Part shown: one piece after another, positions 279 through 11,017 of the stretch
How positions within the stretch are numbered: position 1 is the first letter of the stretch
How the letters are laid out: the number at the start of each line of letters is the position of its first letter
IMG/VR virus record: IMGVR_UViG_3300027672_000002
Coordinates: 1-32,150 of that record
Length of the DNA: 32,150 bases
Reading direction: 5' to 3' (one strand)
Origin: a virus
Lineage: Duplodnaviria > Caudoviricetes
Translations under genes and position numbers: made by a program
The notes under the pieces: generated by a model
What the model was told of the DNA's origin: nothing
Database searches by the model: none
Seen by the model: only the letters and a program-made list of their open reading frames with translations

Positions 279-506
279 ATGAAATACTCCAAAAAAAAAG
301 TAGACAAGACCTATAGCTGCAAATTATTATCTAGTAAAGAAAAAGTACACAGGTTGTTAGAAATTGATGCTACACAATATACTAATCTAGGAATAGACTC
401 AACAATAGAAGAAAAGCAAGAAGTCAAAAAAAATAGCATTTATCTATATGAGATCATACAAAAACTAGATTCCAGATTAGGAAAAACACTACTACATAAT
501 GGCTAA
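279..506 (+). CDS. Hypothetical protein
   Basis: 75-aa ORF overlapping the start of the next gene. Confidence 0.7.
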   Translation: MKYSKKKVDKTYSCKLLSSKEKVHRLLEIDATQYTNLGIDSTIEEKQEVKKNSIYLYEIIQKLDSRLGKTLLHNG

Positions 507-888
507 AAAACTTACAAGGACTAAATTGGTTAAAAAGCTAGATACAATATTTAGCCAATATATTAGGCAAAAAAATGCTGTTGATGAAATAGCCACTTGC
601 TTTACTTGTGGTAAACAAGACCATTGGAAAAAGCTACAAAATGGACACTTTCAAAGTAGAAGGCATTACTCAACAAGGTGGGATGAAATGAACTGTCAAG
701 TACAATGCTCAGGCTGTAATGTTTTTAAATTTGGTGAGCAGTTCTTATTTGGTCAAAATCTAGACAATAAATTTGGACAAGGAACTTCAAGAAGATTACA
801 CATTAAAGCACAACAAACAATTAAACTGGCAGACTTTGAATTGGAGGATATGATAATAAATTACAAAAATTTTGTAGATAGGATGTAA
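499..888 (+). CDS. ninG: NinG/Rap-like recombination endonuclease (HNH/Zn type)
   Basis: LDTIFSQYIR, CFTCG, NGHFQSRRHYSTRWDEMNCQVQCSGCN motifs. Confidence 0.85.
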   Translation: MAKKLTRTKLVKKLDTIFSQYIRQKNAVDEIATCFTCGKQDHWKKLQNGHFQSRRHYSTRWDEMNCQVQCSGCNVFKFGEQFLFGQNLDNKFGQGTSRRLHIKAQQTIKLADFELEDMIINYKNFVDRM

Positions 889-901
889 ATTCATACATTT
901 G
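871..901 (+). promoter_or_regulatory. Consensus Bacteroidota housekeeping-sigma promoter
   Basis: TTTG (871-874), 19-nt spacer, TACATTTG (894-901). Confidence 0.8.
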
Positions 902-904
902 ATT

Positions 905-959
905 GTTCTGTTTTTATTACTAGAGAAGGGGTTGATGTTAAAATCGCCCCTTTTTTTTT
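905..959 (+). ncRNA. Candidate small antisense RNA (~55 nt)
   Basis: Lies between a consensus promoter and an intrinsic terminator with no credible ORF; 5' end complementary to leaders at 4401-4413 and 10816-10828. Confidence 0.55.
926..959 (+). terminator. Intrinsic terminator
   Basis: AAGGGGTTGAT...ATCGCCCC hairpin followed by T9. Confidence 0.85.
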
Positions 960-973
960 GATTAAAAACACTA

Positions 974-1000
974 AGTTGTTAACTTTTTTGTTTATATTCG
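974..1000 (+). promoter_or_regulatory. Early promoter/operator A
   Basis: AGTTGTTAAC-N6-GTTTATATTC, overlapping the TATATTCG -7 variant; same layout as 4348 and 10767. Confidence 0.6.
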
Positions 1001-1030
1001 TATAAGTAAGAACCTAAAAGACAGACACTA

Positions 1031-2197: not shown

Positions 2198-2235
2198 AAA
2201 AGCTATGGGTTGTTGTGATTCATAGCTTTTTTTTT
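2198..2235 (+). terminator. Intrinsic terminator
   Basis: AAAAGCTATG...CATAGCTTTT stem followed by a T-run. Confidence 0.85.
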
Positions 2236-2246
2236 AAATTGATCCA

Positions 2247-3080
2247 ATGACAAAGAAACAAACAGAACACAATAACAGAATGCAATTAATTGAAAACGAT
2301 TGCTTAGTAAATACCAAAGAAAAAATTGACTACCCTCCAGTAGCATTATCGTTTGGTGAGAAATTGATTAAAAACCCAAAGGGGGATTCGTTATTACCAA
2401 TACCAATAGGTACATATGGAAACCTTAGCTGTGTTAGCGCACCACCTAAAACCAAGAAAACATTTTTCATATCTTTACTTGCATCGGTGTATTTAAGTGG
2501 AAGCAACATATATGGTGGTGATATATTAGGACATAGAGATAAGGGAAACCTAATACATTTTGACACCGAACAAGGACTTTGGCATTGTCAGCGAGTATTT
2601 AAAAGGGTCTACGATATGGATTCTAAAATAGACACGGATATTTATCACACGTTTGGCCTTCGTGCGGTGGGTTATAAGGAACGATTAGAGTTCATTGAGT
2701 ATTATCTATCGGAAAAAATAAATACTCCCTCTCTGGTCATTATTGATGGAATTGCCGATCTTGTGTCGGATGTCAACAGTTTAGAAGAGTCCAATGCTGT
2801 AGTTCAAAAGCTAATGCTATGGTCAGCTAAATTTAATTGCCACATTATAAATGTGATCCATCAAAACTATGGAACCGCTAAAATGACAGGACACCTAGGC
2901 TCTTTTTTGGAGAAGAAATGCGAGACACACATTGAATTAGAGGCTAATACTGCTAACAAAGAATGGGTAACAGTAAAATGCAAGAGAAGCAGAGGATATG
3001 CTTTTGAAACGTTTAGTTTTAAAGTTAATGAATTGGGGTTGCCTGTTATTGTGCAAAATATTTATGATCCACTAAAGTAA
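2247..3080 (+). CDS. RecA-fold (SF4/RepA, AAA_25-like) replicative helicase
   Basis: Variant Walker A APPKTKKT, FDTEQG, Walker B VIIDGIAD, IHQN, GHLGS. Confidence 0.8.
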   Translation: MTKKQTEHNNRMQLIENDCLVNTKEKIDYPPVALSFGEKLIKNPKGDSLLPIPIGTYGNLSCVSAPPKTKKTFFISLLASVYLSGSNIYGGDILGHRDKGNLIHFDTEQGLWHCQRVFKRVYDMDSKIDTDIYHTFGLRAVGYKERLEFIEYYLSEKINTPSLVIIDGIADLVSDVNSLEESNAVVQKLMLWSAKFNCHIINVIHQNYGTAKMTGHLGSFLEKKCETHIELEANTANKEWVTVKCKRSRGYAFETFSFKVNELGLPVIVQNIYDPLK

Positions 3081-3081
3081 A

Positions 3082-3579
3082 ATGAAAAAAGACGTAATTA
3101 GTTTAATAGCTGAAAAACACAATACTTGGGTTGACATTGTTTCAACCTTTGGATGTACCAAGAGAATAGCTGAAGACATTACGCAGGAAATGTACATTAA
3201 GATACATTTTCAATTAGAAAAAGAGGACAATAACATAATGTACAATAACGAGATAAATTACTACTATATATTTAAAACCTTAAAAACCTTATTTCTTGAC
3301 CTTAAAAGAAAACATAAAAATATTAGTATTATTTACCTAGACGATTATGTAAGGGATCACGGAGAAACTCATTACTCACCTAGTGATGTAAATTACGAAG
3401 ATGCATATGCTGTCATTGAAAAAAAACTAAACACAATGTATTGGTACGACAGGAAAGTGTTTGAAATAATAAATGGAGGAGAAAGCATTGCAGAATTTTC
3501 CAGAAAGTCAAAAATCAAATATTACTCACTTTATTTTACTTATAAAAAAGTCGAAGAAAAATTAAAAAAATTATTATGA
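3082..3579 (+). CDS. Phage sigma-70 family (ECF-like) RNA polymerase sigma factor
   Basis: Region 2 AEDITQEMYIKI...YIFKTLKTLFLD; region 4 HTH (YDRKVF...SIAEFSRKSKIKYYSLY). Confidence 0.8.
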   Translation: MKKDVISLIAEKHNTWVDIVSTFGCTKRIAEDITQEMYIKIHFQLEKEDNNIMYNNEINYYYIFKTLKTLFLDLKRKHKNISIIYLDDYVRDHGETHYSPSDVNYEDAYAVIEKKLNTMYWYDRKVFEIINGGESIAEFSRKSKIKYYSLYFTYKKVEEKLKKLL

Positions 3580-4349: not shown

Positions 4350-4409
4350 TTGTGAACTATTTTGTTTATAACTTTTAATGTTGTATCTTTAAGTATAATC
4401 AAAAACAGA
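4348..4409 (+). promoter_or_regulatory. Early promoter/operator B plus leader
   Basis: TTTG-N19-TATCTTTA; inverted pair AGTTGTGAAC-N6-GTTTATAACT; 44/49 identical to 10767-10815. Confidence 0.8.
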
Positions 4410-4413
4410 ACAA

Positions 4414-4563
4414 ATGACAAATAAAGACGCATTCACATATGGTGAAATTATTGGTGAGCTAATGGGTTTAGAAACTTTATACCTTAAGGGTGATGAAGAA
4501 AAACAAATGCTACAAGCCACTATCAGCAAAATGGAATCACTTTTTAATAGTTTAAATAAATAA
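4414..4563 (+). CDS. 49-aa hypothetical protein (not in ORF track)
   Basis: First ATG after promoter B; MTNKDAFTYGEIIGELMGL... Confidence 0.7.
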   Translation: MTNKDAFTYGEIIGELMGLETLYLKGDEEKQMLQATISKMESLFNSLNK

Positions 4564-4566
4564 GAA

Positions 4567-4770
4567 ATGGAATACAGAACGCAAGAACAAGCCATTGAGA
4601 TTTACAAAGAAACCTACGATGGTAATTGGAAAGCAGCAAAAGTAAAGCTAAACGGATATGGATTCCATTACTGGGAATTTATAGATAAAATTGATAGCTA
4701 TCATCAGGAAATGGGGGTTTCAGAAAAATACCGACTTGAAATACTAAGGACATTATCTCATTTGATATGA
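4567..4770 (+). CDS. Hypothetical protein
   Basis: Tightly packed + strand ORF. Confidence 0.65.
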   Translation: MEYRTQEQAIEIYKETYDGNWKAAKVKLNGYGFHYWEFIDKIDSYHQEMGVSEKYRLEILRTLSHLI

Positions 4771-5238: not shown

Positions 5239-5948
5239 TACTTCTGGTAGATGCTGACAGTTTAATATTTGCGAGTTGCTATCAAAAAAGGGAAACACCT
5301 GAAGATGACCCATATCACTCAGACATATCAAAAGCACGTAACAAATTTGATGAGCAGTTTATGAGAATTGTAAATCACTTAGAGGATATGTATTCAATTG
5401 ATAAGGTCATTACGTTTAGCGGATCTAGAGGAAACTTTAGAAAGTTAATATCAAAAAAATACAAAGCAAACAGAAGTTATTCTAATTTACCTCCTTTATT
5501 GAATGAGATGCACGAGTACGTTAAAAAACAATACGATAGCATCTATGGATATGGAGTAGAAACTGACGATATGGTGGCTAGGTATTGGTATAACATCGCT
5601 AAAGACATAGGACGTGACGAGGTTATGATTGTAAGCATAGACAAGGACTACAAACAGTTTCCTTGTCTGATGTACAATTACCACTATAAACACAAAGAGG
5701 TTTACGATATAAGCGAGGAACAGGCTTTGTATAACTTCTACGAGCAGATGATAGCAGGAGACACCGCTGATAATGTGAATTACTTTAAAGGTAAGGGCAA
5801 GAGGTTTGCAGAAAAATATTTTGCTGAATGCCAAACTAAATATCAGTATACTAGAAAGCTATATGAATTGTTTAAAGAAAAATACAAATCAAAAGCAAAA
5901 GAAAAGTATAGCGAATGCTATCACCAATTGAAATTAAGGATTGACTAA
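5235..5948 (+). CDS. 5'-3' exonuclease (FEN/PIN fold, T7 gp6/T4 RNase H-like)
   Basis: LVDADSL, NFRK...YKANR, ETDD, SIDKDYKQ, GDTADNV...GKG. Confidence 0.9.
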   Translation: MILLVDADSLIFASCYQKRETPEDDPYHSDISKARNKFDEQFMRIVNHLEDMYSIDKVITFSGSRGNFRKLISKKYKANRSYSNLPPLLNEMHEYVKKQYDSIYGYGVETDDMVARYWYNIAKDIGRDEVMIVSIDKDYKQFPCLMYNYHYKHKEVYDISEEQALYNFYEQMIAGDTADNVNYFKGKGKRFAEKYFAECQTKYQYTRKLYELFKEKYKSKAKEKYSECYHQLKLRID

Positions 5949-6430
5949 TGAAGAAAAAGAACCCTACACCATTAGAGATAGCTAAGGCTGCTTCTGATGT
6001 TTTTAACATAGATATATTCGATAACCAAAGAGGACATTTTCACGTATATGCAAGAGCTTTGGTATGTTGGATTATGAGAGACAAGTTACAAATGAGATGG
6101 ACATACATTGCGGAATGGTTTCAAGAAAACGGAAAACATATGAATCACTCCACAGCAATGCATCTGGTTAAGATGTACCCCAGCTATAGACAAAAGAATA
6201 TTAAAATACGTAAATTAGAAAAAAGATTCTATTTTACTGAAAACGTGAATTTTGATGAAATTGACAAAATTGAATATCTAGAAAAAAAATACTTTAAACT
6301 AGAGTCAGATTATTTAGAACTAAATAAAAAACTAAAAAATCCTCTGGTAAACTTAGTGCTAGATGTGCCAACAAATAAATCATCAGAAATGAAAAACAGA
6401 ATTAAAATGATAAAAAGTGCTTGGAGCTAA
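5948..6430 (+). CDS. DnaA domain IV-like HTH DNA-binding protein with C-terminal coiled coil
   Basis: VYARALVCWIMRD...IAEWF...NHSTAMH resembles the DnaA_C signature (AR.iam...l...IG..F..RDHTTV.H). Confidence 0.7.
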   Translation: MKKKNPTPLEIAKAASDVFNIDIFDNQRGHFHVYARALVCWIMRDKLQMRWTYIAEWFQENGKHMNHSTAMHLVKMYPSYRQKNIKIRKLEKRFYFTENVNFDEIDKIEYLEKKYFKLESDYLELNKKLKNPLVNLVLDVPTNKSSEMKNRIKMIKSAWS

Positions 6431-7223: not shown

Positions 7224-7817
7224 ATGATACAAAAAGTTAAGATTACCGAGATTTTCTCAAATTCCACTAATCCTAGGACGATACAAAAGGATAAGTTTAA
7301 AAAATTATGCAATAGCATAAAAGAATTTCCAGAGATGCTAAAGCTAAGACCAATTGTGGTTAATAGTGAAATGGGTATACTTGGCGGAAATATGAGGTAC
7401 AAGGCTTGTCAAGAAATTGGACTCAAAGAGGTTTACATAATTAAAGCTGAAAACTTTACTGATGATCAGATACAAGAGTTTATAATAAAAGACAATGTCG
7501 GGTTCGGAGAATGGGACTGGGACATTTTAGCAAACACTTGGGATGTTGAAAAGCTAAATGAATGGGGACTTGAAGTTCCAAGCATTGAGGATTTTACTGG
7601 TGTTGAAGAGCAAGAAATAGAATTTAGCGAGTATCTAGACGAAGCTCACAACTATGTTGTTTTACTATTTGACTCAGACGTTGATTGGTTAAGTGCTCAA
7701 ACTCATTTTAACATAAAGTCCGTTCATTCTATGAGAGCAAACGGAAAGCCTTGGTCTAAGGGCATAGGAAGGGTGCTGGATGGTGCTGAATACTTAAAGG
7801 GTATAAAGGATGTCTAA
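7224..7817 (+). CDS. ParB/Srx-like N-terminal domain protein with distinct C-terminal domain
   Basis: NPRTI...LRPIVV...ILGGNMRYKAC...IKDNVGFGEWD. Confidence 0.85.
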   Translation: MIQKVKITEIFSNSTNPRTIQKDKFKKLCNSIKEFPEMLKLRPIVVNSEMGILGGNMRYKACQEIGLKEVYIIKAENFTDDQIQEFIIKDNVGFGEWDWDILANTWDVEKLNEWGLEVPSIEDFTGVEEQEIEFSEYLDEAHNYVVLLFDSDVDWLSAQTHFNIKSVHSMRANGKPWSKGIGRVLDGAEYLKGIKDV

Positions 7818-9624: not shown

Positions 9625-10762
9625 TGTCGTATACAAGCATTTAGTTGAGAACCAAAAAAAGATTGTAGTTGAGCAAGGCGGTACAAGGTCTGGAAAAACC
9701 TATAACATTATACTTTGGATTATATTCGAGTATTGCACAAGGAATAACAATAAGATTATTACGATATGCCGAAAAACCTTTCCTAGTTTAAGAGCTACCG
9801 TATTGCGTGATTTTATGTCTATACTGCAAGGCAATAAAATATATAACGAAAAATACCATAACAAGTCTAATTCGGAATACCACTTATTCGGAAACCTTGT
9901 TGAGTTCATATCCTTAGATCAACCCCAAAAAATTAGAGGACGTAAAAGAGATTTACTATTTGTAAATGAAGCTAACGAACTATATTTTGAGGATTGGCAA
10001 CAATTGCTATTTAGGACTCAAGAAAAAATAATAATAGATTTTAACCCATCTGACGAATACCATTGGATTTATGATAGGGTGATTCCCAGAGAGGACTGTG
10101 CTTTTTTTAAGACGACATACCTTGACAATCCATTTGTTGAGGATTCTATAATACAGGAAATTGAAAGGCTTAGAGATACAGACGATCAATATTGGCAAGT
10201 TTATGGACTTGGCGAAAGGGCGGCTAGTCGTAGTACTATTTTTAAATACTTTGAGGTAAACAGAATACCTGAACAAGCAAATCTTATTGCTTATGGTATG
10301 GATTTTGGATACACTAATGATCCTACTACTTTTGTTGCTGTATACACAGAGGGATACAATTTATATGTGCAAGAGCATCTTTATAGAACTCAGATGACAA
10401 CTCAAGACATTAACGTGTTTTTGAGAGAACAGAATTTATCTAGCAATCCTATTTACGCCGATAGTGCAGAGCCTAGATTAATTAGTGAATTGAGAAGAAT
10501 GGGACATAACATATTGCCTAGTATAAAGGGACGAGACTCTGTTAATGCTGGAATCGATTTACTTAAACGGTACAAGATTCACATAGTTAGTTCTTCAACA
10601 AATGCTATAGCAGAGTTCAGGGCTTACAAATGGAAAGAAGACAAAGCAGGTATGCTGGTAAATATTCCAGAGGATAAAAACAATCATATTATTGACCCTT
10701 GTCGATATGCTACTTATTCTATATTGTCTAGACCCAATTTTGGTAAGTACACTCTGCATTAA
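9599..10762 (+). CDS. terL: Terminase large subunit (PBSX/Terminase_3 type); TTG start
   Basis: QGGTRSGKT, NEANE, DFNP, GMDFGY..DP, ADSAEP, NHIIDP.RYA. Confidence 0.95.
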   Translation: MIPLKIKTNVVYKHLVENQKKIVVEQGGTRSGKTYNIILWIIFEYCTRNNNKIITICRKTFPSLRATVLRDFMSILQGNKIYNEKYHNKSNSEYHLFGNLVEFISLDQPQKIRGRKRDLLFVNEANELYFEDWQQLLFRTQEKIIIDFNPSDEYHWIYDRVIPREDCAFFKTTYLDNPFVEDSIIQEIERLRDTDDQYWQVYGLGERAASRSTIFKYFEVNRIPEQANLIAYGMDFGYTNDPTTFVAVYTEGYNLYVQEHLYRTQMTTQDINVFLREQNLSSNPIYADSAEPRLISELRRMGHNILPSIKGRDSVNAGIDLLKRYKIHIVSSSTNAIAEFRAYKWKEDKAGMLVNIPEDKNNHIIDPCRYATYSILSRPNFGKYTLH

Positions 10763-10766
10763 AATA

Positions 10767-10828
10767 AGTTGTGAACGATTTTGTTTATAACTTTAAAAGG
10801 TGTATATTTAAGTATTAATAAAAACAGA
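10767..10828 (+). promoter_or_regulatory. Early promoter/operator C plus leader
   Basis: Near-copy of promoter B; TTTG-N19-TATATTTA. Confidence 0.8.
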
Positions 10829-10831
10829 CAT

Positions 10832-11017
10832 ATGAAAACATTTAAAAAGTACAGTCAAAACTTAAAGAGGGTTGGCAATGAAATTAAAAGTTACAATACA
10901 ATTGTCGCGAGGATCGAAGGCAATGACTTACTTCAGTTAGGTTATTGGTCACAGACCACACAAAAGCACATTAATTATGTAGCTGATGAGTTAGACCTAA
11001 TTTTAATCAAAGAATAA
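10832..11017 (+). CDS. Hypothetical protein (61 aa; start corrected to ATG 10832)
   Basis: The track's TTG start lies inside the promoter; SYNTIVA...WSQTTQKHIN motif. Confidence 0.75.
   Translation: MKTFKKYSQNLKRVGNEIKSYNTIVARIEGNDLLQLGYWSQTTQKHINYVADELDLILIKE

Follow-up and report, generated by a model that had tools for sequence, protein, structure and literature searches.

The C4 RNAs of phages P1 and P7 (RF01695) and the CI RNA of phage P4 repress genes of their own phage via short complementary sites; both are processed out of the operon they regulate and function during lysogeny, and P1 and P7 differ by matching changes in the C4 RNA and its target. The sar RNA of P22 and the OOP RNA of lambda are encoded opposite their targets. 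Full repression of ant requires C4 (PMC8198154), and P4 CI, which pairs with seqA and seqC, stops transcription of the replication genes (PMC4825925). Together with aQ, which likewise lies opposite its target, sar and OOP repress regulatory genes of temperate phages, each acting on a single target and sar by blocking translation initiation (PMC12197685). In the parts of that review considered here, every phage sRNA has either a single phage gene or host genes as its target (PMC12197685). StxS, like the lambda 6S RNA (PR'-tR'), is a trans-acting sRNA from a promoter-terminator unit at an operon boundary; it targets stx1AB and host rpoS and arises as a by-product of antitermination (PMC7547250). 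Among host RNAs, GibS (RF04182) of Bacteroides thetaiotaomicron is about 145 nt long, has a single-stranded 5' seed and a 3' terminator, and represses metabolic targets by pairing of the seed with starts that lack a Shine-Dalgarno sequence (PMC7366714). Cluster K mycobacteriophages carry start-associated sequences (SAS) in one orientation a few bases 5' of non-structural starts; they contain a Shine-Dalgarno core, an RNA or protein partner was left open, and the portion of the paper considered describes no matching RNA (PMC3203893). For phage phi38:1, six unnamed putative ncRNAs were reported (PMC5335546).

The locus described here lies in a phage genome of 32,150 bases, the whole of which was analysed and is referred to as the window. 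Because the contig carries a 127-nt terminal repeat, it is likely a complete circular assembly, and its + strand holds every called gene. Scans of 44 and 26 proteins against PHROG and Pfam, respectively, named genes for NinG, an AAA_25 helicase-like protein, an exonuclease, terminase, portal, tail fibre, endolysin and holin. The same scans, which can overlook divergent proteins, gave no match to an integrase, a partition ATPase or a repressor in the complete window (a ParB_N domain at 7224 only), in line with the lack of an obvious CI-type repressor noted in an earlier sequence-only reading. The closest cultured matches are Flavobacteriia phages with 24–40% identity, which together with the promoter type points to a host among the Bacteroidota.

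Immediately 3' of the ninG/rap endonuclease gene (499..888; PHROG 5034, PF05766), its constant neighbour by synteny, we found a promoter-seed-terminator unit on the + strand. The predicted promoter fits the consensus with -33 and -7 elements (PMC6847099): as claimed before, it reads TTTG-N19-TACATTTG, with the -33 element TTTG at 871..874 within the end of ninG, the -7 element TACATTTG at 894..901 and 19 nt between them. Because transcription starts 4–5 nt behind the -7 box in this promoter type (PMC6847099), the predicted RNA would begin at about 906–907; with a putative start at 905–907, it would be a small RNA of about 54 nt (906..959). The fold of 905–960 consists of an unpaired 17-nt 5' part and a single hairpin at 922–956 (-16.4 kcal/mol; z -3.86; 2 of 200 shuffles equally stable), giving a single-stranded 5' seed (906..921) and an intrinsic-terminator-like hairpin with U-tract (922..959). 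The earlier description as some 55 nt with a hairpin, nine T and no credible ORF thus held, as the single hairpin is followed by nine U and no conserved ORF was found on either strand. The hairpin is the first terminator-like site 3' of ninG and would end the lysis-ninG transcript as well. A variant -7 box (TATATTCG; 993..1000) of the first early operon follows directly 3' of this terminator. Scanning both strands revealed one such unit in the window and four promoter-led starts, including that of a 33-codon minus-strand ORF without pairing.

Like C4 and CI, this unit appears to specify a phage small RNA with short complementary sites among the phage's own genes, but it is stand-alone, and its matches lie at the starts of three to four distant operons, in a genome without an integrase or repressor match. 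In contrast to sar, OOP and aQ, it lies opposite none of its targets, and unlike in the case of StxS, a promoter of its own serves the next operon, and the predicted targets are phage early starts. It shares with GibS the 5' single-stranded seed, the 3' terminator and, by prediction, pairing and repression at starts without Shine-Dalgarno sequences, and several features that mark GibS-type trans-acting sRNAs were found, namely a predicted promoter and terminator of its own, no conserved ORF, a seed complementary to distant initiation regions and compensatory seed-target changes, the latter being weaker with loosely chosen pairs. Compared to the SAS tags, a complementary unit exists here and varies with the tag. 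Rfam gave no match at gathering thresholds in the window; C4 was absent from 17 weak matches for 850–1040, and the GibS model RF04182 scored 14.1 bits against a cut-off of 115. In the literature searched, which covered few subscription papers, we found neither a description of the unit nor one of a phage sRNA that governs several operons of its own genome. Six short seed motifs did not occur in the six supplementary files of PMC10690425 that were compared.

Two exact 13-nt complements reported in the sequence-only reading were confirmed. Bases 907–919 are the reverse complement of 10816..10828, which is followed by CAT and the ATG at 10832 of a 61-aa gene (PHROG 4264); this gene belongs to a third early unit behind the terminase gene with a Bacteroidota-type promoter at 10780..10810. 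Bases 903–915 are the reverse complement of 4401..4413, directly abutting the ATG at 4414 of a 49-aa gene in the second early operon (Bacteroidota-type promoter at 4361..4391). As suspected, this match would lie partly upstream of the predicted transcription start, and with an RNA start at about 906–907 it shrinks to 9–10 nt. The two 13-mers are the longest + strand complements of 902–960, the next ones, apart from the U-tract, being 10-mers. Among 20000 dinucleotide-shuffled seeds, a single one attained 13 nt with two of the three promoter-led leaders, and none of 20000 sets of shuffled leaders did so. A third predicted target, imperfect and pairing at -9.4 kcal/mol, is located at 1017..1028 in the leader of gene 1031–1255 and contains the ACAGA (1021–1025) ascribed to the third early leader. 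Most pairing energies were calculated with a seed from 904, and cutting it to 906 or 907 preserved the family results given below; with the seed so cut, the promoter-led starts at 10832, 4414 and 1031 took ranks 1–3 of 50 called starts, and the start at 1440 took rank 4. Further ACAGA pentamers had been pointed out near the starts at 1440, 2247/2280 and 4567. We rejected the pentamers as evidence, as 8 of 50 starts have one within 25 nt, compared to 8.1% per scanned interval by chance; by pairing, the start at 1440 stood at its rank 4, that at 2247/2280 was borne out in relatives, and that at 4567 found no support with an energy of only -6.7.

To follow the unit in relatives, which form a family of uncultured marine phages, we collected 291 loci from five protein scans of viral contigs, one scan of genome contigs and the window, which were merged to 237 records; 30 loci found by pattern alone were excluded. 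A script located the unit 3' of ninG in 160 of the 173 ninG-bearing records. One of the other 13 is truncated, six contain a variant recognised by eye, and six distant ones lack the unit. In L314, L315 and L317–L320, ninG runs straight into a DnaA-HTH-like gene (with a PF08299 match in L317) and the unit is absent. The NinG proteins of the relatives are 36–84% identical to that of the window, and the records share kinship, with a quick tree being poorly resolved (25 of 73 forks open). The -7 box begins at or past the ninG stop codon in all 160 records, its T, A, T and T being invariant in 28 aligned sequences, and TTTG, TTGG or TTCG is present at the matching position in 90 of 97 records. Among 108 distinct relatives, the predicted RNA has a median length of 55 nt, 103 show a mean unpaired probability of at least 0.7 over the first 14 nt, and 59 contain no ATG. 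The sequence of the stem varies while its pairing is kept: across 22 selected sequences, both sides have changed in 4 of the 11 consensus pairs. We recorded 77 distinct seeds, of which 60 keep the core TCTGTT. An inverted leader of an antisense ORF was considered and rejected, since a minus-strand ORF of at least 30 aa occurs in 1 of 108 cases. The -7 box directly 3' of the terminator is conserved in 88 distinct first promoters. A later metagenome scan added five loci, of which L325 is the same genome, L328 has a variant unit by eye, L329 starts 3' of the unit, and L326 and L327 gave no unit by script.

Some further observations were made on the relatives. Their DNA-modification genes vary (L288, L297, L314, L024, L030, L284 and L111) and include a 7-deazaguanine pathway (QueC, a QueD-like protein, FolE and QueF), Mom, methylases, and a Tet/JBP oxygenase with a glycosyltransferase. 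L172 is a 2.5-kb family contig with the unit in a MAG labelled Thermoplasmata and is likely misbinned.

We then compared the pairing of each seed with the gene starts of its own record, using genes called with a simple ATG-only script and starts classed blind to the seed. After removal of duplicates of seed and site, a duplex of -10 kcal/mol or better was found for 86 of 132 distal promoter-led leaders, a class which includes some miscalled starts, and for 62 of 99 leaders adjacent to the unit. The corresponding counts were 390 of 3197 internal starts, 4 of 64 promoter-led genes upstream of the unit, 5 of 13 helicase leaders, and none of 20 late leaders. In the first 97 records, distal leaders paired at a mean of -11.8, compared to -5.9 with shuffled seeds and -5.7 with shuffled leaders. 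The complementarity is thus commoner at promoter-led starts than in shuffles, as the earlier proposal required. The genes behind the distal leaders are short and variable, and comparisons of leaders and gene families agree that late and lysis-region genes are not targets. Several counts speak against such targeting: for 18 of 57 seeds, no distal leader pairs at -10 or better, pairing is weak in 37 of 99 adjacent leaders, and an internal gene is the top-ranked start in 38 of 63 records.

The strongest target across the family, which had not been recognised as such before, is the first codons of the AAA_25 helicase-like gene at the head of the helicase-sigma operon. In the window, this gene (2247–3080) follows a terminator-like hairpin (2199..2235) closing the first early operon, and a 10-nt complement covers its codons 5–8 (2260..2269); the predicted targets of the window are therewith 0.1, 1.4, 3.5 and 9.9 kb away from the unit. 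In the window itself, an RNA beginning at 906 would pair only weakly here, the site falling outside the top six matches in 5' coding regions, and the case for 2247/2280 comes from the relatives. Among 33 gene families with at least 25 members, the helicase shows the strongest pairing in the first 40 coding bases, with a median of -13.2 and 78% of 98 genes at -10 or better, compared to 22.5% of 3421 genes. Its synonymous codons favour pairing in 82 of 94 cases, which is the largest shift of 25 families (-2.06, followed by -1.75), and each of 11 seed classes prefers its own helicase site. A codon test on Thr-Glu at the helicase gave no significant difference (34 of 46 vs. 99 of 152; p 0.29), and loosely chosen nearest pairs gave 20 of 34 (p 0.30). 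In 58 of 88 cases the -7 box ends 2–6 nt 5' of the helicase ATG, so the mRNA is likely leaderless there. The gene directly 3' of the helicase (3082..3579) resembles sigma-70/ECF-like factors by Atlas look-alikes named sigma-70 family, with no match in Pfam or PHROG. It likely drives the late promoters. The motif CGTTAT, read as TACGTTATA, is present a few bases 5' of five packaging or structural starts (7212, 11420, 18583, 19383 and 22159) out of 12 sites in the window, and these TACGTTATA sites may be the late promoters served by this factor.

The seed is not only kept in the relatives but varies together with the leaders. Own pairs of 57 seeds and 132 distal leaders have a mean of -10.3 compared to -8.2 for foreign pairs, with none of 20000 permutations reaching the residual, and 47 of 57 seeds prefer their own leaders. 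When the seeds were collapsed to 5, 7, 13 or 17 classes, the own-seed fit was reached in 322, 197, 0 and 0 of 20000 permutations, respectively, whereas promoter-led leaders outside the target classes served as a control and showed no own-seed effect (4786 of 20000). Disjoint nearest pairs by NinG with clearly different seeds, which are not strict independent contrasts, had the better fit with their own partners in 26 of 28 cases, and in 19 of 27 under a looser rule (islands). Different pairs of seed and tag occur in separate branches (L312, L255, L238, L268, L033 and the L031/L037 group), and L328 shows by eye another seed with a matching leader. We considered L283 as a counter-example and rejected it: its seed pairs with the helicase leader (-16.1) and a second short stretch with one of its four other leaders (-15.4). 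Within 0–160 nt past its -7 box, L283 has two tandem hairpin units, possibly a split into two RNAs. A planned contrast based on G-U wobble pairs went in the wrong direction (C-to-T 23 of 149, G-to-A 25 of 85). One core position favours G-U (10 T and no other base, compared to 5 T and 6 A in internal starts), and these cases may share ancestry. Random internal genes also show a slight own-seed bias (160 of 10000), so lineage composition contributes to the effect. Taken as they stand, the anatomy of the cassette, its conservation, the position of the targets and the seed-target co-variation make it very probable that the RNA pairs with these starts.

The alternative that survives best accepts the same pairing and interprets the RNA as an immunity factor, which would hold the phage in a carrier or pseudolysogenic state or silence related phages arriving later, comparable to P4 CI and P1 C4. 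Because the operon encoding helicase and late sigma is among the targets, a single RNA could suppress the entire cascade; the seeds differ between lineages, and no CI-type repressor was matched. The common core TCTGTT would make most seeds cross-react with kin, which would also suit such a function, while seed conservation is high for immunity types. Against it stands a complete genome without a match to an integrase, a partition ATPase or a repressor. Among 231 of 242 cluster representatives of at least 90 aa, taken from the partial records of relatives, a single integrase was found in L313, which has no unit. Finally, the scan of genome contigs, which reaches close relatives only, gave no prophage and the 2.5-kb MAG contig as its sole match. 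We therefore consider an immunity factor unlikely and, since no genes for lysogeny were found, prefer a brake or timer in lytic growth.

Far less probable is an explanation in which a protein, e.g., one with a DnaA-like helix-turn-helix, binds the shared motif as DNA, and a copy of this motif stands reversed 3' of the ninG promoter without any RNA pairing. The failure of the planned wobble test to favour RNA pairing leaves room for this, and the phage does encode a candidate DNA-binding protein: the product of 5948..6430 weakly resembles the DnaA C-terminal helix-turn-helix (PF08299, E 6e-4, below the cut-off; 27% PF08299 in its Atlas cluster) and may regulate early promoters at the DNA level. 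Phage Harreka also has a gene annotated as DnaA C-terminal HTH. The motif, however, follows the start codon and not the promoter: the end of the duplex keeps its distance to the start codon (interquartile range -3 to +2, n=117), shifts, if measured from the promoter, as leader length changes (rho 0.67), and moves into the coding sequence where the mRNA is leaderless. It is present in sense orientation in 73 of 121 leaders and reversed in none, a count biased by the A-rich leaders, and swaps of the whole motif among lineages keep the complementarity. Moreover, a separate DnaA-box-like motif exists, which in the window lies 5' of the early promoters (976–990, 4350–4375 and 10768–10795). Scored as a 9-mer by a relaxed pattern on what we take to be the consensus, it occurs at 67 of 128 distal (island) promoters and 17 of 88 adjacent promoters, compared to 2 of 111 sRNA promoters.

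We give equally little credence to the unit being nothing but a terminator or attenuator of the lysis-ninG transcript, whose U/G-rich 5' part matches the leaders by composition or pairs in cis in read-through RNA. Its hairpin is indeed the first terminator-like site behind ninG, A-rich leaders are usual in the phylum, non-cognate pairs already reach -8.2, and antitermination is known to yield short leader RNAs as by-products (PMC7547250). This explanation fits poorly with a -7 box that is near-invariant in non-coding DNA and with a next operon that has its own promoter. Moreover, A-rich late and upstream leaders do not pair, the specificity reaches leaders 3–12 kb away, and shuffled sequences fail to reproduce the match. 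That the RNA pairs but activates or stabilises mRNAs, as known for the phage sRNAs StxS (PMC7547250) and PreS (PMC12197685), or chiefly targets similar starts of host mRNAs, is likewise very improbable, because the three leaders of the window are almost unstructured (-3.1, -0.4 and -0.2 kcal/mol), so there is nothing to open and repression is favoured over activation, the pairing covers the initiation region, and the co-variation is with the phage's own genes.

Candidates beyond the family were sought in cultured phages and by a pattern scan. Flavobacterium phage 11b has a candidate analogous promoter-seed-terminator unit 5' of its Erf/SSB operon (L321:30333-30400), and 8 of its 65 annotated starts show a complement of at least 10 nt (shuffled-seed mean 2.0; 23 of 2000 reach 8). 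Because this unit is the best of four in the genome, from four phages examined, and the matched starts include some in the structural region, we regard it as a lead only. A unit after the holin gene of Nonlabens phage P12024S (L322:10181-10245) was rejected with only 2 of 42 exact matches near starts; one 12-nt match lies 5' of gene 16313 and the rest are weak. Inspection of P12002S and Harreka by eye revealed no convincing unit. A seed-blind pattern scan of viral contigs yielded 31 loci, four of them family members. We rejected 24 as an unrelated class in which the pattern coincides with the end of a gene (a 304-aa ORF in the case of L146) and no starts match, and L150 and L151 gave no clear target. 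L170, a phage whose proteins gave no match to those of the window, has the same layout on its minus strand (~9930–10055); the one target complementary to its seed spans the start codon of the following gene (-13.9).

We thus favour the reading that the unit specifies a trans-acting sRNA, probably a translational repressor of the first gene in each host-sigma operon, which would serve as a brake or timer in lytic infection. The original proposal of a single RNA aimed at the first genes of several early operons is thereby partly supported, through the enrichment at starts over shuffles and the seed-leader co-variation in relatives, and a timing or lysis-delay switch is a plausible form of it. 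On infection, host RNA polymerase would use one promoter type for both the sRNA and the early mRNAs, and the stable sRNA would accumulate and pair in trans with the starts of the first genes. Upstream adenines promote initiation, and A-rich leaders are normal in Bacteroidota (PMC6847099); the sRNA would cover this A-rich stretch 5' of the start codon used by Bacteroidota ribosomes and block initiation, similar to GibS, whose 5' seed represses at starts without Shine-Dalgarno sequences (PMC7366714). On the mostly leaderless helicase mRNA, it would cover the first codons instead. The variable island genes would then be expressed in a pulse and the helicase-sigma operon above a threshold, and the late genes would escape by their different promoter motif. 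A second shut-off of the island promoters at the DNA level by the DnaA-HTH-like protein is a guess; because the sRNA promoter lacks the DnaA-box-like motif, it would stay on in this case.

If this reading is correct, new island genes would gain control simply by landing behind a tagged leader, and the multi-operon regulon of one RNA in its own genome would add an RNA layer to phage early control. The natural seed-target pairs across dozens of lineages would also be available for studying translation without Shine-Dalgarno sequences in Bacteroidota, and the unit suggests a possible purpose for the start-associated tags of other phages. More speculatively, and with considerable doubt on our part, one RNA of about 55 nt may replace a protein repressor as the master control of the lytic cascade in widespread marine Bacteroidota phages, with co-evolving tags on every host-sigma operon, the leaderless helicase-late-sigma operon among them, and with an RNA pool that would set a lysis/carrier threshold or exclude superinfecting kin, and the same may apply to phage 11b.
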